Made by a program: the position numbers and the translations under genes
Shown here: positions 5,312 to 59,872 of the stretch, piece after piece
Numbering within the stretch: the stretch's first letter is position 1
Layout: each line of letters begins with the position of its first letter
Notes under the pieces: generated by a model
What the model was told of the DNA's origin: nothing
Databases searched by the model: none
What the model saw: only the letters and a program-made list of their open reading frames with translations
DNA from: an uncultured Nitrososphaeraceae archaeon
GTDB lineage: Archaea; Thermoproteota; Nitrososphaeria; Nitrososphaerales; Nitrososphaeraceae
Direction of reading: 5' to 3'
Length of the DNA: 64,000 nt
Assembly: GCA_963837175.1 (NCBI GenBank)
Contig: CAWIMJ010000047.1
Location: forward strand, 1-64,000

Positions 5312-5986
5312 TTAGACTTGGTTGAATCCCAAGGCGAGATCTAATAGTTTTTCTGACCAATTTTTTGCCTTTACAACACTGCTCGCGACCAATATTCCAT
5401 CTGCACCCAACTCAAGCGCACTAATCACATCACTTTTGTCTGTTATTCCAGCGCCACAAATCATCTTAGTTGAGGTAGAATTCTTTGAAAGTGCTTGTAA
5501 AGAATCAGTAATAATCAATGGATTGACCTTTGAAACTGCCTTTCCTGAACCTATCAATTCTGGCGGCTCAACAGCAATAAAAGTGGGTGATAGATCAGCT
5601 AATACCTCAACTTCTTGAGCGGTTTGTGCGCATACTACAGAAAGCATTTTTAATTGATGTAAACGCTCTACTATATTCCTTATAGCGTTGCTATTTAACC
5701 GATGTTCACTGTGGTTTATGAGGGAGCCGACTGCTCCATATGAGTTTGCTATCTCTGCGACAAAGAAACCAGTCGTTGAACCAATCTGTGAGTCATCTAC
5801 ATGCTGACATATAACAGGAAGCTTAACATTCTGTATTACAGCTGACAGTGAGGGTTGTGGTGGTGCAATTACAATTTCTACCTGAAGATTATCTGCTATT
5901 TGCTCAGCGACTTTTGCGAGTCTAATAGTGTCATGGGCAGAAACTTCAAGATAGTTTTTAAAATTAATGATGAGAGGTCTTTTCAC
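5312..5986 (-). CDS. tpiA: Triosephosphate isomerase (archaeal type)
   Basis: IINFKNY, LINHSEH, AVEPPELIGSG, CGAGI; likely GTG start at 5986 (ORF track extends to 6034). Confidence 0.93.
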   Translation of the reverse strand: MKRPLIINFKNYLEVSAHDTIRLAKVAEQIADNLQVEIVIAPPQPSLSAVIQNVKLPVICQHVDDSQIGSTTGFFVAEIANSYGAVGSLINHSEHRLNSNAIRNIVERLHQLKMLSVVCAQTAQEVEVLADLSPTFIAVEPPELIGSGKAVSKVNPLIITDSLQALSKNSTSTKMICGAGITDKSDVISALELGADGILVASSVVKAKNWSEKLLDLALGFNQV

Positions 5987-7117
5987 CTTTAGCCATCTCT
6001 TTTTGTCTTCCTCTTTTCTCATGTTGGACACCATCTATATCTTTAAATTTTTCGTTCAACTTGGACATTCTAGCTTCATATCCTTTATTGTATTCCAACT
6101 CCTCAGGAACCAATGTAGCTGGGTGAATGAAACCTTGGTTCCGCATAAGCATCGCTCTTTCAGATGCCCAGATCCTCTGCAAATCCCAATCTACTGTGCC
6201 AAACCCATCATGTGGGCCTGTAAGTCTGCCATTATGCATACTAAATACTAAGCATGACACAATGGGTATGGAATAGTTTAGACTTGCAGCAGAATTCAAT
6301 TTGACCGGCATAAGTGGCATATGATGACTTCCTCGGGTGTTTCCTGCGACATAGTGTGGATCATTAAACGCACTGCCTGCTTCCTCAGTAGCCGGAAAGT
6401 TCTTTTGAGTTCTAACAATGGCTATCGGGTCATCTTTTCCGACATATGTGCCAGCGATATTATGTAATCTATCTGTAGATGCCGATAAGATCTGCTCACC
6501 ATCTGAGGATATCACAGAATGAACAACATATCTGCCGGGTACATTAAAGAAGCTTCCAGTTCTGGTTTGTCTTCCCACATTTTAAGATCCGCGATTTTGC
6601 CGTTCATAACGTCCAATATCCTGACAGTTACACCGGATGCGAGCTTCTCATTGATAAGAAGACCAGTGTTACTTCTTGCATCAACAAATATTCTCCAAAA
6701 CGGAAAGTTAAAAGCACCTGGTTCGGTCTTATCAGCAGCAAATATACAAAAGACTTCACTTGGTCTTTCCTCCATTTCTATTTCAGCTACACCCGGTCCC
6801 ATCCCTTTTACATTTCCTGAAAACGCGTCCTTAAGCAAGTCCTGACCAGCGCCATATAGGCCCTGTTCTTTTGCAACCTTAGTTCCTTCAGTAAAAGCAT
6901 CCCAAGCGAGTTTGTGAATCTGTTTATTATCAATACCTAGCGTGTGGGTCATGATAATGTGAATATCATCTCCCGTGAAACCAATATAATAGTCGATTAA
7001 CAAATCTGATCTGTTTGAAATAAAATTCTTTACAGTTTCAACAAGCTCTTCGCTTGGACGAGTATGTCCACCGATTCCTCCTATGTCTGCTTTAATTGCT
7101 GATAATGTTATTCGCAT
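5964..7117 (-). CDS. fbp: Bifunctional fructose-1,6-bisphosphate aldolase/phosphatase, split by a 1-nt deletion near 6537 (probable sequencing error)
   Basis: IKADIGGIGGH, YGAGQDLL, ADKTEPGAFN in ORF 6512-7117; YVGKDDP, GNTRGSHHMPLMP in ORF 5964-6578; junction should read MYP-GRYVV. Confidence 0.92.
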
Positions 7118-13276: not shown

Positions 13277-13514
13277 TTATATGTATTCTCTGATTAATAA
13301 CTTTCTCCTTTTAAAAAACTATATACTGCTTCTTTGAAACCCTATTTAATATAAAATATGTAGAATGTTTTTTTACACTGCTAAATTTTATGTCTACTCC
13401 AAATTTTAATACTAAATGTATATTATTCTCATCTTTTGCCAACAATTTAATGTAATGTATCGTTTTGGCATAGGATAATTAATATTGAATCTTTGCATAT
13501 ACTATAGATTGAGA

Positions 13515-13880
13515 ATGGTTTGGAATTGTGCTGTATGTGGTTCACAATTTGCAAATAAGCAGTGTTATTTTTGTGAAAGCAAAATATGCTCTTCCTGTAC
13601 AGCACCCGTAGATGTGACCGGAGGATATACTATAAAATGTATCAACTGTGCCAGACATGCGATTAATAAAATTAGCTTTCTTTCTGTTATTAGAAGAAAT
13701 AAGATTATAATAGGAATCCTTTTAGGCTTTTGGATCTTTACTGTTTATCCTATTCCTTTTCTCCAGATGCTTGGTTACAATATTCCTGCAACAGCATTTC
13801 AGCCTGTTCTTATTACAACTGCTATCATGGTTATTCCATTCATTTTCCTGTTTATCGCGTGGCAGAAGAGAGGCACTTAA
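13515..13880 (+). CDS. Hypothetical protein with N-terminal Cys-rich zinc finger and two C-terminal TM helices
   Basis: Four CxxC pairs (CAVC, CYFC, CSSC, CINC) then two hydrophobic segments; ATG at 13515. Confidence 0.7.
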   Translation: MVWNCAVCGSQFANKQCYFCESKICSSCTAPVDVTGGYTIKCINCARHAINKISFLSVIRRNKIIIGILLGFWIFTVYPIPFLQMLGYNIPATAFQPVLITTAIMVIPFIFLFIAWQKRGT

Positions 13881-13946
13881 CGTATTAGATCAAATAGAAA
13901 TAATGAGTTACAATGCTGATTTAATAAACATTAGAAGATGGATATC

Positions 13947-14972
13947 TCAATATAGATTAGTTTTAACTAAATTCGTGAACTCTTTTGTAGTGAGTTCTCC
14001 TCCAATGTCTTTTGTTTTTTTATTTTCTTTCAGCAAGCAGTATATAGCGTGTTCGATTCGCTTTCCTTGCGTAAGAGCATCTTCATCATTATTCTTGTAG
14101 GCCAACCACTCAAGCATCATTTTCGTTGATAGTAGAATTGACGAAGGATTTGCTATGTTCTTTCCTGCAATATCAAATGCTGCGCCATGAACGGGTTCAA
14201 ATAATGCGAAGTCATCACCTATATTGGCGGCCGGTCCCATTCCTAGACTACCTGCTATTTGTGATGCTTCATCCGATAGTATGTCCCCAAAAAGATTAGT
14301 AGTTAAAATAACATCGAATTCTTCAGGATTTCGAATTAAATTCATTGCACAAGCATCCACATATAGTTCACTATATTCTATGCTTGGATATTTTTCTGCA
14401 ACTGATTTACATGTCCTTGCAAATAACCCGTCGCCTTTTCGTAGAACATTTGCTTTATGAACTGCTACGACTTTACGTTTTTTGTTTCTGAGAATGGACA
14501 ACTTAAAAGCATGTTCAGCGATTCTCCTAGATGCCCTTTCTGAAGTTAACCTTAGTGCAATAACAGTACTATCATCGGCATAAAACTCCCATCCCAGGTA
14601 TAGGTCTTCAGTATTCTCTCGTACAATCACCAAATCTATATTATTAGAATAAGTCGGTGTGTTCGGAAAAGATTTCGCTGGCCTGACATTCGCATAAAGA
14701 TCAAATATCTGTCTCAAGACTACGATCACATCAGCGGCGCTTTCTCCTACTGGGCCTTTCAGACAGGCGTCAGATTCTTTTATTTTAGCCAAGGTTGAGT
14801 CTGGTAATGCTTTGCCAAACTTACTAATTGCATTATCTCCAGCTGAAACTTCAAATATAGTAAACTTAGTTTTAGAATTATCATTTATACTCTCCAAAAT
14901 TGTCTTTGCAGAAGACGTGAGATCAGGACCTATTCCGTCACCAATAATAAGCGCAATATTATACCTTGACAA
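13947..14972 (-). CDS. leuB: 3-isopropylmalate dehydrogenase (isocitrate/isopropylmalate DH family)
   Basis: GDGIGP, RENTEDLY, VHKANV, NLFGDILSD, FEPVHGAAFDIAGK; operon with leuA. Confidence 0.88.
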   Translation of the reverse strand: MSRYNIALIIGDGIGPDLTSSAKTILESINDNSKTKFTIFEVSAGDNAISKFGKALPDSTLAKIKESDACLKGPVGESAADVIVVLRQIFDLYANVRPAKSFPNTPTYSNNIDLVIVRENTEDLYLGWEFYADDSTVIALRLTSERASRRIAEHAFKLSILRNKKRKVVAVHKANVLRKGDGLFARTCKSVAEKYPSIEYSELYVDACAMNLIRNPEEFDVILTTNLFGDILSDEASQIAGSLGMGPAANIGDDFALFEPVHGAAFDIAGKNIANPSSILLSTKMMLEWLAYKNNDEDALTQGKRIEHAIYCLLKENKKTKDIGGELTTKEFTNLVKTNLY

Positions 14973-20159: not shown

Positions 20160-21195
20160 CTACTCAGCTATAACGACTACTTTCATTGCATCATTGGCTT
20201 TATGCGCACATTTTATTGCCTGCGCGGCATCATCAATTTTAAAACGATGGGTTATTAAACTCCTAATGTCGATGCGTTTTTCTGCAATCAATTTTATTGC
20301 CTGATTGGTTTCAATTTCAGATGCAGCGTAGCTAGGAATCAGAATATGTTCGTTCGAATATAGATTATTCAAATCATAAGAAATAATAGCTCCCTTCGGA
20401 GGTACTCCAAAAAGCATTATTCTACCTCCCCTTCTTGTGAGTTCAAATGACTGCAGAACCGCAGTTGTATTTCCAGTGGCGACAATTGTGATATCTGTTC
20501 CTCTGCCGTTAGTGGCTTTTTGGATTTTCTTGATGACCGCTTTGTCAATCATTGAATTGAAAGTTGTAAGATCATGATGTTTCCTCGCGAAATCCAATCT
20601 AAATTGGTTAACGTCAATTACAAAGATTCTTCCAGCGCCAAATATTTTTGCAAGAAGTATGTGCATCATACCAGCTGGACCTGAGCCCAAAATTGCAACA
20701 TCATCTCCTTTATGGAAGTTGCACTTTGCCAATGCTCTTAGACAACACGCTAGAGGCTCTATCAAAGAGGCTTCATCATATGAAACATTAACTGGAATCT
20801 TTATGAGACCACCTCTAGAAATGTTCCATTCAGGGACTAGAATTTGTTCAGAAAGTCCGCAAGGATCAATATTGCTGCCTGTGATAGCTATTGCACATCG
20901 TGTAATCTCCATGAAGACAATAATGACAAGAATAACAGGGTACATGGTGATGAATAAATACACGATCACCTGGAGCAAAACCGTTTACCGTTTTTCCTAT
21001 CTGCATAATTTCACCAGCAGGTTCATGTCCTAGCCTTGCAGAACCCATACCGTACTGACCATAAACCTTCTCTAAATCGGAACCACATAGACCGCATGAG
21101 CGCATTTTAACGATTATATCACCGTGGTTTAGTTTTGGAGACGGAACTTCATCAACTAAAACTGAGTTTTTACCTTTAACAAAGACCGCCTTCAT
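20160..21195 (-). CDS. Zinc-dependent (MDR) dehydrogenase, sorbitol/threonine DH-like; 1-nt insertion near 20879
   Basis: CGLCGSD, GHEPAG, CYSCHYC..C in 20866-21195; EPLACC, GSGPAG in 20160-20978. Confidence 0.85.
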
Positions 21196-32248: not shown

Positions 32249-32520
32249 ATATTAGTAACAGTGAGACAGTTACTATAATAAATTTGGAGCATTTCATACA
32301 TTATTATTATTAATACCTCTAAACAATTTACAAGCAGAAGAATTTTTGCGATAATCTTAACAGAATTATAAAATCTAAAGATATCATATCATTATACACA
32401 CATGGCGATACTGTGAATCGAAGATATGGCAATGCATCGAGTAAAATTATTTACTTGGTATAATAATCCAAAGGACCTTAACGGATAATGTATTAATAGT
32501 TATTGAGAAGAGATCCATAT

Positions 32521-33333
32521 ATGACAAAGATATTTGCCGACGTGAACGAGAAAGAAATTACTCGCGCCATCTCCGGGATGTTCAATGAGACTATGATGGA
32601 ATTTACAGACTCTGATGTAATAATCATTGGATCGGGACCTGCTGGTTTATCGGCAGGTAGAGAATTAGGGAAAATGGGCATAAAGACACTGATTGTTGAA
32701 CAGAATAATTACGTCGGTGGTGGTTATTGGGTCGGAGGATATATGATGAACCCTGTAACGGTTAGAGCGCCAGCCCAGAAGGTCTGGGATGAGCTTGGAG
32801 TTCCATATAGAAAGATAAATGAAGGACTTTATGCAACATGGGGACCACATGCATGCTCAAAACTCATAGCTGCTACCTGTGATTCGGGTGTTCGATTCCT
32901 GCAGTTAACAAAATTTGATGACTTGATCTTAAAAGAGAAGCGTGTATGCGGTGTGGTTATTAATTGGATGCCTGTATCCTCTCTTCCTAGAAATATTACT
33001 TGTGTAGATCCGGTTGCACTTGAGAGTAAAATCGTCATAGATGCTTCAGGTCACGATTCTGTTGCTGTAAAACGCTTAATGGATCGCGGTTATGTCAAGT
33101 GGAAAGGGATGGATCCTATGTGGGTAGAAGGAGGTGAAGATGCTGTAGTCAATAGTACCGACGAGATTTTTCCGGGTTTGATAGCAGCTGGTATGGCAGT
33201 CACAGAGACATACGGCTTGCCACGAATGGGGCCGACATTTGGTTCAATGTTGCTTTCTGGAAAGAGGGCCGCAGAAGTAGCATTCAGTAAACTTAAAGAG
33301 ATGCCTAGTTCTCCTAAACTAAAGATAAAGTAG
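32521..33333 (+). CDS. thi4: Thiazole synthase THI4 (Cys-type)
   Basis: GSGPAG, GGGYWVGG, TCVDP, DASGHD, PRMGPTFGSMLLSG. Confidence 0.93.
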   Translation: MTKIFADVNEKEITRAISGMFNETMMEFTDSDVIIIGSGPAGLSAGRELGKMGIKTLIVEQNNYVGGGYWVGGYMMNPVTVRAPAQKVWDELGVPYRKINEGLYATWGPHACSKLIAATCDSGVRFLQLTKFDDLILKEKRVCGVVINWMPVSSLPRNITCVDPVALESKIVIDASGHDSVAVKRLMDRGYVKWKGMDPMWVEGGEDAVVNSTDEIFPGLIAAGMAVTETYGLPRMGPTFGSMLLSGKRAAEVAFSKLKEMPSSPKLKIK

Positions 33334-33365
33334 TGTTCAAATTTGTAGACTCGCAATAAATAGTT

Positions 33366-34175
33366 TTGAATTTTCGATATATTCATCTTTATTCTGATTG
33401 TACTATGAGAAATTTGAATATGCATAGAGTCGCTAATGATATAGGAAAAATGTTTTCAAATTGTACAATAGACATAAGGATTCCTTTCCTACAATACATT
33501 AGAAATTTAATATCAGTTAATTGGTTGGCAGAAGAACTTGCGTCTATACATATCTCAGAGACAAAACAACCTTATCATCATCAACCTGAAAGAAGAAATA
33601 AACAAGATAGGAGTAGCGTACTTTTTGAAAAAAATTTGATTATCGATCCATATCCTACCGCCGTCTTGTACGATGGCTTTATAATGCAAAGTATATACTC
33701 AAGGTTGCTACCTGAAAATGAAAAAACGATAGATAATATACACGTAATATTCGATAGCAGATTGACCTGTACATTTAGTGAAGAGGACTACAGGTATCAT
33801 GCCCGAGCTATTATCTGTGGAACGCCATCTATCATATCTACCAGTGGTATAATCGAAGCTCCAGCAAAGCCTAGGGAATTCTATTTTAGACAAATTGGAT
33901 GGATGCCCAGTTCTGGTGATATAGAAGAACTGCAGAAGCAATTTGCTGGAAAATATATTGATTATGATGACGATAGAATAAACTCTGTTGCAACTGGATA
34001 TACTATACAAGCACTTTTTTTCTTCTTGACGGATGGAGATCCATTTTGTAGCGATGCTGGTTGTAGGATTTTTAACGCTCATTGGCAAGAGGATCTAATA
34101 AGGACACAAGTAAATAATCAGAGAATGTGTAAAAAGCATCTTCTTCTGTTAGATAGATTTCTAAATCGGAAGTGA
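33366..34175 (+). CDS. Conserved archaeal hypothetical protein, putative zincin-like metallopeptidase
   Basis: LYDGF, RLTCTF..DYRYHARA, GIIEAPAKPREFY, FC...CR.FNAHWQEDL..C..H; family assignment from recall. Confidence 0.6.
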   Translation: MNFRYIHLYSDCTMRNLNMHRVANDIGKMFSNCTIDIRIPFLQYIRNLISVNWLAEELASIHISETKQPYHHQPERRNKQDRSSVLFEKNLIIDPYPTAVLYDGFIMQSIYSRLLPENEKTIDNIHVIFDSRLTCTFSEEDYRYHARAIICGTPSIISTSGIIEAPAKPREFYFRQIGWMPSSGDIEELQKQFAGKYIDYDDDRINSVATGYTIQALFFFLTDGDPFCSDAGCRIFNAHWQEDLIRTQVNNQRMCKKHLLLLDRFLNRK

Positions 34176-55357: not shown

Positions 55358-58300
55358 TTAGAATACAACGTACGGTTTTAGCGGAGCCAAAGTAGGAGAA
55401 TGTGTTTTTAACCATTCCAGAGTTTTGGTAAAAGACGAAGCTGATTCGATGGTGGTTAGAACAGGAATGCCTAGTTCTACTGCCTTTCTCCTTATCTGAT
55501 ATTCATCGTACAGCATTCCTACATATCTTTCAATTGTAGATGTAGAAGGAATGTTTATTATAAAGCTAATTTGTCGTTCAAATAACAAATCTGAAATATT
55601 TGGTTTTCTGTCTGGCTCACTTATCTTATAAACTTGTTGAACATTTTTGAATTTGTTGTTTTCGATAAACTCTGCTGTATGTTCAGTAGCCATAATATTA
55701 TATCCCATAGCAGAGATTAAAGAGATTATTGGCAGCAATTTCTCCTTGTTCTTTTGTCCTCCGATTGTAATTAGAGCTGAGCCTGATAACGGAAGGGAAT
55801 AACCAGGCAGCTAGGTATGCTTTGGATAAGGCATCGTAAAAGCTTTCGCCAAAGCATGCCACTTCTCCAGTTGATTGCATTTCTACACTTAATACAATAT
55901 CTGCGCCTTCTAATTGCATAAAAGAAAATTGGGGGACTTTGATTCCAAAGCCTGTAGCCTTTAACCAAATATCCTTGGTATGTTTGGGCAGTTGGTGACC
56001 TGTCATTGCTCGCGCTGCCAGATCAATCAAATTCATACCTACAAACTTTGAAACAAAGGGCATCGACCTAGAAGCTCTAACATTTGCTTCAATTACTGAG
56101 ACCTCGTCATCCTTTACTAGATATTGTATGTTAAATGGTCCCTTAATTTTTAAAGCCTTGCCTATTCTTGTTGTATAATCTATGACCGTTTCAATAGTTT
56201 TCCTATCAAGTCTCCAAGGAGGAATGCACATCATAGCATCACCTGAATGAATGCCGGCATTATCAATATGTTCTATAAGAGAGCCTAAGATGACTTCATT
56301 TCCATCAGCTACCGCGTCGACCTCTACTTCTGAAGCCTCCTGTAAGAATTTGCTTATCACTATAGGATGATCGGGACTAATATTTGTTGCATCAGCTAAA
56401 AACTGCTCTAGTTGTTGTTCGCCCCATACGACTTTCATTGCTGCACCACTTAAAACGTAAGAGGGTCTGACCAGTACAGGATATCCTACGATGTCAGCAA
56501 ATTCCTTTGCTTCTCTTAGTTCTGTGAATTTTTTCCATGCCGGCTGTCTAATATTAAGCGAATCTAATAACTGCCCAAACTTTTCTCTATCTTCTGCTCT
56601 ATCAACATCCTCGCTGCTCGTTCCAATAATCTTAATACCATGTTTAGAAAGGTGCGGTGTAAGGTTATTTGCTATTTGACCTCCGACGCAAGTAATAACT
56701 CCGCTGGGTTTCTCATTCTCATATATGTCCATGACTCTCTCATAGGTCAATTCTTCAAAATACAACCTATTAGAGACATCATAATCTGTTGAAACCGTTT
56801 CCGGATTACAATTAATTATGGAAACTTCTTTAATGCCATTCTGTTTCAAGGCCCACACCATATTGACTGTTCCCCAGTCGAATTCTACACTACTACCAAT
56901 CCTGTATGGGCCAGCGCCTAGGACTATTGCACTTTCTTTACTGTTCTCAATTAGTATGTCATCAGTCTGACCACCATATGTCATGTACAGATAATTTGTT
57001 TTGGCCGGCCATTCGGCAGACAATGTGTCGATTTGCTTTACCACTGGTTTTATTCCGAATTTCTGTCTTATCTCTCTGCACTTAAATTCGTCTAATCCTA
57101 AACATCTTCCAATCTGTCTATCAGAAAAACCAATCTTCTTGGCTTCTTTTATTAAATCTACATCAAGGTTTGAATTTCGCAACTTTCCTTCCATAACTAA
57201 AATATTCTTAATCTTCATCAAAAACCATGGATCAATAGCAGAGAGTTGGTTTATCCTATTAATTGTCATGCCAGCCCGAATAGCTTTAACAATAGTAAAT
57301 ATTACTTCATCATTTGGGTGCAATAATGCCTGTTCTAAAGCCTCAGTATATTCACCGGAATCAGCAGTCTCATTGTCGAGATTGGCCACTAAGCCATCCT
57401 TGCCAATGTCGCACATTCTGATTGCTTTCTGGATTACTTCTTCAAAACTGCGACCGATTGCCATTACCTCACCTACTGATTTCATTGTGCTTCCTAGCTT
57501 GCGTTTAACAAATTCAAATTTTTTAAAGTCCCATCTGGGCATCTTTAATACAATATAGTCAAGTGAAGGTTCAAAGCAAGCTGTAGTTGCCTTTGTGATT
57601 CTGTTGATAAGTTCAGGTAGCGAGTACCCAAGGCTAATTTTTGCCGCCATGTATGCCAGAGGATAGCCTGTTGCCTTACTTGCAAGAGCAGAAGATCTAG
57701 ACAGTCTGGCATTAATTTCTATAGCACAATACTCTTCTGATTCTGGATTTAGACCAAATTGTATATTACATTCGCCAATGATATCACAGAAAGTGGTTGC
57801 TCGAATTGCAGCGGATCGTAGCATTTGATATTCAAAATTATTGAGAGTTTGTGAAGGTGCGACAACTATGTTGTCGCCTGTATGAACACGCATTGCTAAA
57901 ATATTTTCCATATTGCAAATGATTACACTATTGCCTCCAGCGTCTCGCATTACTTCATATTCGATTTGTTTCCAATGACCCACATATTTTTCAATTAGAA
58001 CCTGATGGACTATACTAAGAGAAAGCCCTCGGTTAACTATTTCTTCTAACTCGTATTCGTTATATGCAACACCTCCTCCTTTTCCGCCGAGAGTATATGC
58101 AACTCTAATAATAACAGGATAGCCAATTCCCTGAGCGATCTTTAATGCCTCGTTGATCGTGTAAGCGGGTGCACTTGGTAATAGAGGAACACCAGATTTT
58201 ACCATGGCGTTTTTAAATAATTGTCTATCCTCAGTAATCTGTATTCCATGGATTTGCGTTCCTAAAACTCTTATTCCATATTTTTCTATTATTTTCTCTT

Positions 58301-58632
58301 GATAAAGTGATACCCCGCAGTTAAGTGCGGTTTGTCCACCAAAACCTAACATGATAGAATCAGGTCTTTCAGCCTCAATTATCTTCTCGACGTATTTAGG
58401 AGTAATTGGCAAAAGATAAACCTTATCAGCGAATCTCGTATCAGTTTGAATAGTAGCAATATTGGGATTTATGAGAACGCTCTTGATATTGTCTTCTTTG
58501 AGTGCTTTTAAGCATTGAGAACCGGAGTAATCAAAATAGCGGTCAACAATATTGACTTTCGCCTGCTTCTCCGATCTTAATAGCGCCACTACCTAATACG
58601 AGAACTTTCTTTATGGTTTCATCTTTTGCCAA
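55358..58632 (-). CDS. carB: Carbamoyl-phosphate synthase large subunit; exon 1 58632-58558, 22-nt BHB intron, exon 2 from 58535; extra 1-nt insertion near 55807
   Basis: TTG start with GAGGAGG SD; exon 1 MAKDETIKKVLVLGSGAIKIGEAGE joins FDYSGSQ; two ATP-grasp domains (HTGDN, HSGDA); MGS domain in 55358-55806. Confidence 0.93.
58536..58557 (-). other. Candidate archaeal bulge-helix-bulge mRNA intron in carB (AGUCAAUAUUGUUGACCGCUAU)
   Basis: Inner stem GUCAAU/GUUGAC, bulge AAA, 4-bp helix GGCG/CGCU, bulge AUU, exon-exon helix AUCGGAG/CUCCGGU; canonical cuts give GGC GAA UUU GAU. Confidence 0.85.
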
Positions 58633-59872
58633 TTTTCCTCCTCTTCCTAGCCTTTATATTTTCCTTAGTTAAAACTCTGGCTGTTTTTTTTATTCTATCC
58701 GATTTATTAAAGTCATTTATTATTTCTTTGAATCTGTCAAAAATAAACATGCAATCGTTTGGTCCTGGCGACGCTTCTGGGTGAAATTGAACAGCTATGA
58801 TTGGTTTTGATTCATGTTCGATACCTTCTATGGTATTATCATCAATATTAGAAAACCAAATCCTGAATCCTGTTTTATAAAGGTTTTTAGGATCTATTCC
58901 ATAGCCATGGTTCTGACTAGTTATGTATGTTTGGTTATTTCTTAGATCTCTACAAGGTTTATTCTGACCACGATGTCCGAATTTTAACTTGTAGGTATCT
59001 GCGCCTCCAGCTAAGGCAAGAATTTGATTTCCCAAACAGATCCCCAAGGTGGGTATAGATTTCTCAATCAATTCAGACGCTGTCATAACTGTAGCTGTGC
59101 AAGTTCTGGGATCTCCAGGACCATTGCTGATCACAACACCGCGTGGTTCATAGGATTTTATTTTTTCATATGGCGTATCCCATGGAAGACGGATCACTTT
59201 GTAGCCTAATCTAATAATATTGCGTATTATGCTATATTTAGTCCCAGTATCCAATAATACTATACATTCATTATTACTGGTTCCATACTCAGATGGTTGA
59301 TTAACTGATACTTCAGGCATAAAGTTTCGTCCTTCATAATCCTCGCTTTTGGCCAATTTTGATAACCTTACCTCGTCAATAGGATCTTTAGAAACTGCAA
59401 GAGCTCCGTTCATTACACCTTTGACCCTTAACTTTTTTGTCAGCTCTCGTGTATCTATACCATAAATACCGGGAACTCGCTCATCATATAACCACTCATC
59501 AAGAGTCTTCACACAACTCCAATGGCTTGCAACATGAGATAGGTCATGAATCAATAAGCCTTTAATCTGAATTTTCTCAGATTCAAAATATCTTGGCAAG
59601 CCGAATTTGTCTTTTATCCCGTAAGTAGGAACACCGTAGTTTCCAATAATTGGATAAGTCAGACACAATATTTGGCCTCGATAGGAGGGATCGGTGAGCG
59701 CTTCTGTATAACCGACCATCCCTGTATTAAAAACTATCTCTCCAGCAATCTCATCAGGATAACCAAAACCTGTTCCTGAAAATAAACTGCCGTCTTCGAG
59801 TATTAATCTCGCATTATATGCAGTATATTTAGATTCAAGAGTAGGAATTTTAGACCCTTTCAAGCTGTTCAT
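58619..59872 (-). CDS. carA: Carbamoyl-phosphate synthase small subunit
   Basis: GEIVFNTGMVGY, TDPSY, SNGPGDP, GICLG, GHRG.N, SQNHGY, QFHPEASPGP. Confidence 0.96.
   Translation of the reverse strand: MNSLKGSKIPTLESKYTAYNARLILEDGSLFSGTGFGYPDEIAGEIVFNTGMVGYTEALTDPSYRGQILCLTYPIIGNYGVPTYGIKDKFGLPRYFESEKIQIKGLLIHDLSHVASHWSCVKTLDEWLYDERVPGIYGIDTRELTKKLRVKGVMNGALAVSKDPIDEVRLSKLAKSEDYEGRNFMPEVSVNQPSEYGTSNNECIVLLDTGTKYSIIRNIIRLGYKVIRLPWDTPYEKIKSYEPRGVVISNGPGDPRTCTATVMTASELIEKSIPTLGICLGNQILALAGGADTYKLKFGHRGQNKPCRDLRNNQTYITSQNHGYGIDPKNLYKTGFRIWFSNIDDNTIEGIEHESKPIIAVQFHPEASPGPNDCMFIFDRFKEIINDFNKSDRIKKTARVLTKENIKARKRRKIGKR

Follow-up and report, generated by a model that had tools for sequence, protein, structure and literature searches.

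The window analyzed here is a 64,000-nucleotide (nt) stretch from an uncultured Nitrososphaeraceae archaeon (assembly GCA_963837175.1, contig CAWIMJ010000047.1, positions 1 to 64,000). On its minus strand lies carB, the gene for the large subunit of carbamoyl-phosphate synthase, and its coding sequence is interrupted by 22 nt at 58557..58536. We consider it highly probable (roughly 0.9) that these 22 nt form a bulge-helix-bulge (BHB) intron that is removed by tRNA-type splicing. This interpretation, including the joining of GGCGAA to TTTGAT, had been put forward in a sequence-only reading of the window, and four findings now support it: the insert is conserved at the same site, its helices covary, the 5' exon is under selection, and an RNA-library contig lacks the 22 bases.

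Direct reading of the minus strand confirmed that carB, which starts at TTG 58632, is split by 22 extra bases (AGTCAATATTGTTGACCGCTAT) between GGCGAA and TTTGAT. The 5' exon is translated into 25 residues ending ...GSGAIKIGEAGE, and downstream of the insert the sequence continues from 58535 as TTTGATTACTCCGG..., which encodes FDYSGSQ.... The unspliced frame reaches a TGA at 58545..58543 after 29 aa, corresponding to the open reading frame (ORF) 58543..58632, and the 3'-exon frame is that of a 963-aa ORF at 55698..58589, which is identified by Pfam as the large chain of carbamoyl-phosphate synthase (CPSase_L_D2, 353.4 bits; CPSase_L_D1, 247.2 bits; CPSase_L_D3, 86.9 bits). The features that mark a CarB protein were all found, namely two ATP-grasp halves, an oligomerisation domain, an MGS-like domain and the N-terminal motif G-x-G...IG-x-A-x-EFDYSG. 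The genome assembly comprises 3.8 Mb in 58 contigs, with 91.5% completeness and an estimated contamination of 3.2%. Homology, pattern and covariance-model searches of this genome for a second intact carB, which would have suggested that the copy in the window is decaying, returned none; the other matches were ATP-grasp proteins with at most 28% identity.

We examined the carB 5' ends of related archaea of the ammonia-oxidiser type and found an insert at the same codon boundary in 45 of the 60 genomes from which these ends were fetched; it was absent from the remaining 15. A pattern of the two exon motifs separated by a gap of 10–40 nt matched 225 of 401 genomes of the order, and a reversed control pattern gave 0 matches; with a gap of 0–30 nt, the same exon motifs matched 335 of 401 genomes (both tallies take in two genomes flagged as unpublished, G277 and G288). 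By family, the 10–40-nt pattern was found in f1 (98/111), f13 (71/112), f10 (40/97), f4 (9/9) and f14 (2/4), and in the single genome of each of f2, f3, f8 and f11. It had no match in f5 (1 genome), f6 (2), f7 (13), f9 (11), f12 (10), f15 (15), f16 (1), f17 (1), f18 (2), f19 (6) or f20 (1). We also drew a genus-balanced sample of f13, which takes in the unpublished genomes G288, G519 and G520. A short CarB N-terminus was matched in 115 of its 121 genomes, and this match was interrupted in 100 of the 115: in 69 the matching segment held a stop, and in 31 it began only at residue 21–28, leaving 15 uninterrupted. Within genus g1, all 7 genomes carry the insert. The sequence-only reading had argued that a structured 22-nt insert is unlikely to be the same artefact as the 1-nt indels, and its conservation at one site in 225 of 401 genomes bears this out.

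For structural comparison we assembled 115 loci from 113 genomes, representing 101 distinct inserts (loci L005-L138). According to PMC5829648, a BHB consists of two 3-nt bulges separated by a 4-nt helix; this arrangement, positioned at the exon–intron boundaries as expected for a substrate of the splicing endonuclease EndA, was found in 115/115 loci, which all parse alike as 5' strand of the central helix, 3-nt bulge, hairpin, 3' strand of the central helix and 3-nt bulge. The exon bases in the 5' flank are GGCG, replaced by GGTG in 4 loci, and the opposite strand of the central helix is CGCC (48), CGCT (32), CGCA (16), CGTC (13), CGTT (2) or CACY (3), with one further locus combining GGTG and CGCC. 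The pairing of GGTG with CACY in genomes G037 and G038 is a compensatory change in the central helix. The 5' bulge conforms to A[A/G]N and the 3' bulge to A[A/U/G]U in 115/115 loci, and the inner hairpin has 3–8 bp with a G-C closing pair. For the window itself, the minimum free energy (MFE) fold recovered the elements that had been claimed from the sequence: the inner stem GUCAAU/GUUGAC, the AAA bulge, the GGCG/CGCU helix and the distal 7-bp AUCGGAG/CUCCGGU.

The inserts at this site have covarying stems, as the sequence-only reading had anticipated for an alignment of carB 5' ends. Twenty-nine distinct 22-nt cases were aligned without gaps and without fitting to a structure; 90.0% of the cells held standard pairs, compared with 17–45% when the partners were slid by 1–3 columns, and four of the five inner-stem pairs had changed on both sides. 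A second alignment (A2) contained 99 distinct sequences aligned to a covariance model and thus leans towards the structure; here, 88.9% of the cells were paired, and the covariation score was 0.245 against 0.147 for shuffled data, a value reached by 0 of 500 shuffles. The inner helix of A2 was 94.3% paired, with 41, 20, 46 and 39 doubly changed cells at four of its five pairs; the central helix was 96.7% paired, its pair 17–59 being CG in 96 sequences, UA in 2 and UG in 1; and the distal helix (columns 4–10/70–77) showed 93–100% standard pairs. We estimated the chance of a loose motif (a 4-bp central helix and 4 bp or more of inner stem) at a fixed position and length to be about 5e-4 genome-wide, based on 176,984 hits over 7.6 Mb x 47 lengths in the same genome. 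When the insert was shuffled, the loose motif appeared in 166 of 200,000 trials; requiring the 6-bp stem that was observed left 26 of 200,000.

Public sequencing runs were then considered as a source of transcripts. Part of the region window:57600-59400 is contained in 24 public runs, of which 18 are recorded as RNA, and all 19 run rows with an organism label are soil or rhizosphere metagenomes. We compared the Logan contigs of the four best RNA runs (X1–X4, from four studies) with the stretch. The soil metatranscriptome run X1 yielded a 316-nt contig (depth 3.06) that aligns to 58362..58699 and lacks exactly 58536..58557; it is identical to the window at 315 of 316 positions, the single other difference being at 58479. 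Because the flanking bases differ from the end bases of the insert, the deletion cannot be slid, and the RNA junction is therefore exactly GGCGAA to TTTGAT, two bases into each bulge. The junction predicted beforehand, GGC GAA joined to UUU GAU, is thus present in an RNA-library contig, and symmetric excision within the bulges with exact exon joining is seen in one contig of one run. No unspliced contig was seen at the junction, and X2–X4 give no coverage of the site.

These data also bear on the possibility that the mRNA keeps the insert and the ribosome gets past it, either by hopping over it (translational bypassing) or by programmed frameshifting, in the manner of phage T4 gene 60. At first sight the insert could pass for a bypass site, since it is short and structured and soon runs into a stop. 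However, the RNA-library contig lacks the 22 nt, and the covarying geometry is of the BHB type. The inserts are 17–32 nt long and fall into all three classes modulo 3 (51/37/27 among the 115 loci); an in-frame stop occurs in 99 of 115 and a frame shift in the other 16, so that none can be translated through and no single frameshift rule applies. In addition, a T4-gene-60-type site has matching take-off and landing codons around a gap retained in the mRNA. Here the take-off codon would be GAA or GAG, whereas the last insert triplets are UAU, UAA, AAA, CAA, AAG and others, which provide no matching landing codon. We therefore regard bypassing as extremely improbable.

If the intron is spliced out, the 5' exon should evolve as coding sequence. 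We compared the last 20 codons of this exon in 45 genomes with those of the window and counted 351 synonymous and 71 non-synonymous codon differences with 0 stops in the exon frame. For the two remaining frames, the synonymous/non-synonymous differences were 13/405 and 16/403, with 89 and 39 stops, respectively. Purifying selection thus acts on the 5' exon, and it does so in a reading frame that splicing alone would connect to the rest of carB. Relatives without the intron contain the contiguous sequence KIGEAGEFDYSGSQ; for example, G033 encodes KIGEAGE followed directly by FDYSGSQ. We further compared codon usage between 115 intron-bearing and 31 intron-less loci; as related genomes are not independent, these counts are descriptive. 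Gly GGA was used in 109/115 intron-bearing and 8/31 intron-less loci, Gly GGC/GGT in 115/115 and 18/31, Tyr TAC in 113/115 and 15/31, Ser TCC/TCT in 113/115 and 13/31, and Ile ATC in 104/115 and 10/31. The distal helix had on average 6.57 of 7 pairs in intron-bearing genes, compared with 4.68 in intron-less genes. In these loci, synonymous codons are restricted just at the pairing positions and just in the intron-bearing genes. Among the 101 distinct inserts, 85 contain a stop in the exon frame, compared with 23 and 19 in the other two frames, and this stop lies mostly in the third codon, in the hairpin loop. Such a stop would end translation of unspliced RNA early; its enrichment may have been selected for or may be a by-product of A-rich loops.

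Another explanation is that the insert is a lesion or polymorphism at the DNA level, that carB is a pseudogene, and that the X1 contig derives from DNA or RNA of a near-identical strain without the insert. Intron-less alleles do occur within the genera g15, g40, g27, g58 and g72, DNA may be present in RNA libraries, and carB of this assembly contains another break, of 1 nt. However, the insert is present in 7/7 genomes of genus g1, and 120/120 of the best public proteins read through it, at least 13 of them from sequences 98–100% identical to the window; an insert-free DNA allele is not found among either. The X1 contig differs from the window at only 1 of 316 positions. Moreover, there is a single carB per genome, and if this pathway gene were broken in 225 of 401 genomes, a stop-free 5' exon with a ratio of synonymous to non-synonymous differences of 351:71 would not have persisted. 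A lesion or strain variant is accordingly very unlikely.

Several observations nevertheless weigh against a spliced BHB intron. In the MFE fold, the 3' bulge of the window has 4 nt (AUUU) rather than the 3 nt (AUU) that had been claimed, and the fold-energy z-score of the 86-nt stretch is -1.08, no better than for shuffled sequences, so that energy alone is uninformative. The outermost central pair is G.A in 16 of 115 loci, and the exon helix is weak beside the 3' bulge, where pairs 14–66 and 11–69 are unpaired in 61 and 78 of the 99 aligned sequences. Since the exon-side pairs by the 3' bulge are mostly unpaired, the motif would be classed, from its predicted pairing, as canonical at the 5' site and relaxed on the exon side, not as a strict hBHBh'. 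Kinship of the genomes makes the shuffle-based figures overstate significance. The RNA support consists of one contig of depth 3 from one run, and RNA libraries can contain DNA; the observed junction is also the sole support here for the rule that cleavage follows the second base of each bulge. Finally, because of the 1-nt break, carB of this assembly would still be broken after splicing unless the additional base is an assembly error.

Under the splicing interpretation, the 4-bp central helix of the pre-mRNA would form between the exon sequence GGCG and CGCU, which lies towards the insert's 3' end, leaving one 3-nt bulge on each strand. The 6-bp intron hairpin would close one side of this helix, and an interrupted exon–exon helix with the distal 7 bp AUCGGAG/CUCCGGU would close the other. 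Archaeal splicing endonucleases cut after the second base of each bulge. The enzyme, most likely in its two-subunit (alpha-beta)2 form, would accordingly cut AAA after AA and AUU after AU, and RtcB would ligate the exons into GGC GAA followed by UUU GAU, restoring ...IGEAGE-FDYSGSQ..., the conserved N-terminal motif of CarB, with ...IGEAGEFDYSGSQCLK as the junction-spanning peptide. The excised intron would be released, perhaps as a circle. Because the insert has an in-frame stop, unspliced RNA would yield only the 29-aa peptide, and splicing would therefore be required for CarB production.

The genome encodes the enzymes that this scheme would need. We found two ORFs with the EndA domain PF01974 (94.9 and 76.1 bits; 183 and 207 aa) and one RtcB (578.8 bits). 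The two EndA paralogues lie in the regions C41:35700-35930 and C50:224579-224833 of this genome. ARAGORN reported introns in 14 tRNA calls, 12 of which are 10–47 nt long; the two larger ones (72 and 891 nt) look unreliable. PMC5829648 describes conservation of the (alpha-beta)2 endonuclease across Thaumarchaeota and states that relaxed BHB motifs are cut only by (alpha-beta)2 and epsilon2 endonucleases. From these genes and the motif, we infer that EndA and RtcB process the carB intron. Enzymes other than these two could also remove the insert from the RNA, given that the assignment is made from genes and motif and that the exon-side helix is imperfect. This alternative has only a slim chance of being correct, as the loci display the 3-4-3 geometry that defines EndA substrates (PMC5829648), the junction in the RNA contig falls two bases into each bulge, both genes are present, and 22 nt is presumably too short for a self-splicing ribozyme.

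If splicing by EndA and RtcB holds, it may be asked whether it acts as a control or fail-safe step rather than being a neutral relic; the sequence-only reading had likewise suggested a possible regulatory checkpoint. The idea was prompted by the position of the BHB 75 nt into the coding sequence, the fixed pairing codons and the exon-frame stop in 85 of 101 introns, and we consider it unlikely. Were it true, synthesis of an enzyme that feeds pyrimidine and arginine production would depend on, and be tunable by, the capacity of the tRNA endonuclease and RtcB, and carB would be an archaeal counterpart of regulated mRNA splicing of the HAC1/XBP1 type. HAC1 and XBP1, eukaryotic cases of unconventional mRNA splicing that are named in PMC12530127, contain a very short non-spliceosomal intron in the coding sequence, whose removal changes the frame and is completed by RtcB-type ligation. 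The carB intron resembles them in size, in its non-spliceosomal nature, in the frame change and, as predicted here, in the ligation; unlike the carB BHB, however, HAC1 and XBP1 are cut by IRE1 at twin stem-loops under endoplasmic reticulum stress.

Studies by Watanabe in 2002 and Yoshinari in 2006 reportedly described a BHB intron in the cbf5 pre-mRNA of Crenarchaeota. In the genome studied here, cbf5 is uninterrupted (TIGR00425 positions 4–322 of 322 are matched within a single stop-free frame); the intron lies in carB and so falls outside the cbf5 intron family, which is defined by its location in cbf5. According to Schwarz et al. 2020 (PMC7714728), the crenarchaeal cbf5 intron is the only reported mRNA intron besides the case in the 5' untranslated region (UTR) of HVO_1309, and according to Yokobori 2009 (PMC2738675), cbf5 is the only gene with confirmed splicing. 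The latter paper mentions predictions in other protein-coding genes, the two works cited for these concerning the Sulfolobus virus SIRV1 and Sulfolobus genomes, and it lists Cenarchaeum and Nitrosopumilus as lacking the cbf5 intron (PMC2738675). In full-text literature searches, we found neither a carB intron nor any mRNA splicing described for these archaea; most subscription journals lie outside this coverage, and a prior report is possible.

The carB intron shares several properties with the crenarchaeal cbf5 intron as portrayed in PMC2738675: it is short, lies in a protein-coding sequence, adopts a (relaxed) BHB, occurs in hosts with a hetero-oligomeric endonuclease, has a patchy distribution with lineage-specific losses, and confuses gene prediction. 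In contrast to cbf5, the host gene encodes a metabolic enzyme rather than an RNA pseudouridine synthase and belongs to a different archaeal class. The HVO_1309 mRNA of Haloferax volcanii is likewise a substrate of the tRNA splicing endonuclease, as is predicted for carB; however, its intron is in the 5' UTR, its removal rebuilds no frame, and the host is a euryarchaeon (PMC7714728). Archaeal pre-tRNA introns have the same two 3-nt bulges around a 4-bp helix, have similar sizes and are presumably processed by the same enzymes, whereas the carB exons are codons rather than an anticodon stem, and the outer helix, which has an interruption near the 3' bulge, is supplied by a conserved protein motif.

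The sequence-only reading had expected annotation pipelines to call the interrupted gene a frameshifted pseudogene, which is not what the public entries show. The 120/120 best public CarB hits, mostly of 1076 aa, start in the downstream, 3'-exon frame and translate the insert; where names are given, they are carbamoyl-phosphate synthase large subunit or carB, with no pseudogene flag. Their N-termini before FDYSG are consequently false (e.g. VALLRSEKQAKVNIIDRY), and the conserved GSGAIKIGEAGE segment is missing; models, alignments and trees built on these entries are therefore wrong at that end. If the splicing interpretation is correct, carB is a second host gene, after cbf5, for tRNA-type splicing of an archaeal coding sequence, and it is a core metabolic gene. 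The intron would occur in over half of the genomes sampled from the order, whose public relatives carry the label Nitrososphaeraceae. Many of the insert carriers are single-contig assemblies, which makes the prediction testable at the bench.

We propose that the intron is old and widespread in the order and has been precisely lost in several lineages. Three intron-less carB genes retain exon codons of the intron-bearing type (GGAGA[AG]GC.GGCGA[AG] followed directly by TTCGACTACTCCGG), namely G065:C141:557-585 (L155), G148:C53:69796-69824 and G363:C5:88605-88633, and these look like recent, exact and scar-free losses. Presence and absence within genera, together with such losses, would provide material on how archaea gain and lose introns of this kind. 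When the covariance model was applied to 64 genomes of other orders of the class, the element was found in one, G449; at G449:C32:4840-4902 (L171), there is a 23-nt insert of the same design, with the stem GCCGG/CCGGC, the central-helix strand CGCA and a bulge AAU with a predicted cut after AA. In the genome of the window, carB was the only match of the model.

The coordinates of the features of the carA–carB locus are given in Table 1. The 3' end of carA overlaps the start of carB, and the order on the minus strand is carA followed by carB. In the relative G003, an ATG replaces the TTG start of the window.

Table 1. Features of the carA–carB locus in the window; intron and splice-site rows follow the BHB interpretation
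Feature	Positions	Strand	Evidence or remark
carA, glutamine amidotransferase small subunit	58619..59872	-	ORF; Pfam CPSase_sm_chain 161.8 bits, GATase 172.6 bits
Shine–Dalgarno-like GAGGAGG, 5' of carB start	58637..58643	-	direct reading; same motif upstream in relatives
carB 5' exon, 25 codons, TTG 58632 to GAA 58560..58558	58558..58632	-	LAKDETIKKVLVLGSGAIKIGEAGE, encodes ...VLVLGSGAIKIGEAGE
Distal exon–exon helix, 5' strand AUCGGAG	58569..58575	-	MFE fold
Central 4-bp helix, 5' strand GGCG, in 5' exon (Gly GGC + G of GAA)	58560..58563	-	
5' bulge AAA; 5' splice site between 58558 and 58557	58557..58559	-	junction seen in RNA contig
Putative 22-nt intron AGUCAAUAUUGUUGACCGCUAU	58536..58557	-	in-frame UGA 58545..58543; missing from contig of RNA run X1
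Inner hairpin, GUCAAU / loop AUU / GUUGAC	58542..58556	-	MFE fold
Central helix, 3' strand CGCU, inside intron	58538..58541	-	
3' bulge AUU; 3' splice site between 58536 and 58535	58535..58537	-	junction seen in RNA contig
Distal exon–exon helix, 3' strand CUCCGGU	58521..58527	-	MFE fold; 99-sequence alignment
carB 3' exon, in frame with FDYSG: two ATP-grasp halves and oligomerisation domain	55810..58535	-	Pfam scores in text
Second break, one extra base, GCTGCCTGG vs GC-GGCTGG / GCCG-CTGG in same-genus G002, G006	55807..55809	-	blastn
C-terminal MGS-like (allosteric) domain of carB, separate 126-aa ORF	55358..55738	-	Pfam MGS 59 bits

The extra base near 55807-55809 shifts the carB frame, which then stops at 55698, and the 126-aa MGS ORF, which is collinear with intact relatives by blastn, is cut off by this 1-nt break. 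Public relatives with 98% identity have an unbroken CarB of 1076 aa; the break is private to this assembly and reflects either a recent mutation or an error of assembly. The statement that the other breaks in the window are 1-nt indels holds for this one, the sole case checked. Elsewhere in the window, overlapping or abutting pairs or triplets of same-strand ORFs occur at 5312..7117 (-), 13485..14100 (+), 20160..21195 (-) and 32503..34175 (+); these may be further single-base frameshifts and, if so, would bear on assembly quality.

We also scanned the genome of the window for further BHB introns in coding sequences. The 176,984 loose motifs were reduced to 5,437 that would join ORFs and to 266 after helix filters, among which carB ranked second by ORF length. 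Among 100 candidates inspected (60 of the 266 and 40 of 115 'strict' ones), we found no convincing further BHB intron; the scan is heuristic and without homology support, and other cases are possible. Several of them, for example those on contig C47 at +881, +11120 and +44831, fall within ORFs that are already open. The tRNA introns reported by ARAGORN were tried as a control for the cut rule and dropped, as their boundaries and the inner-stem requirement did not line up. On contig C9 of the same genome (~124,400-125,000 and 128,676, minus strand), the candidate-intron snippets are very G+C-rich compared with the A+T-rich carB region, and ARAGORN placed the tRNA-Glu with the 891-nt 'intron' on this contig; C9 may belong to the contaminating fraction.

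Seven public sequences (P0121, P0122, P0124, P0127, P0128, P0141 and P0142) are CarB N-terminal fragments of 75–102 aa with a contiguous ...IGEAGEFDYSG. They come from contigs of 472–5655 nt and are similar to lineages in which most of the genomes sampled have the insert; in this comparison the fetched loci give 18 aa per side, and the best genome match to P0122 is 94%. The fragments could be assemblies of spliced RNA or could come from intron-less strains.

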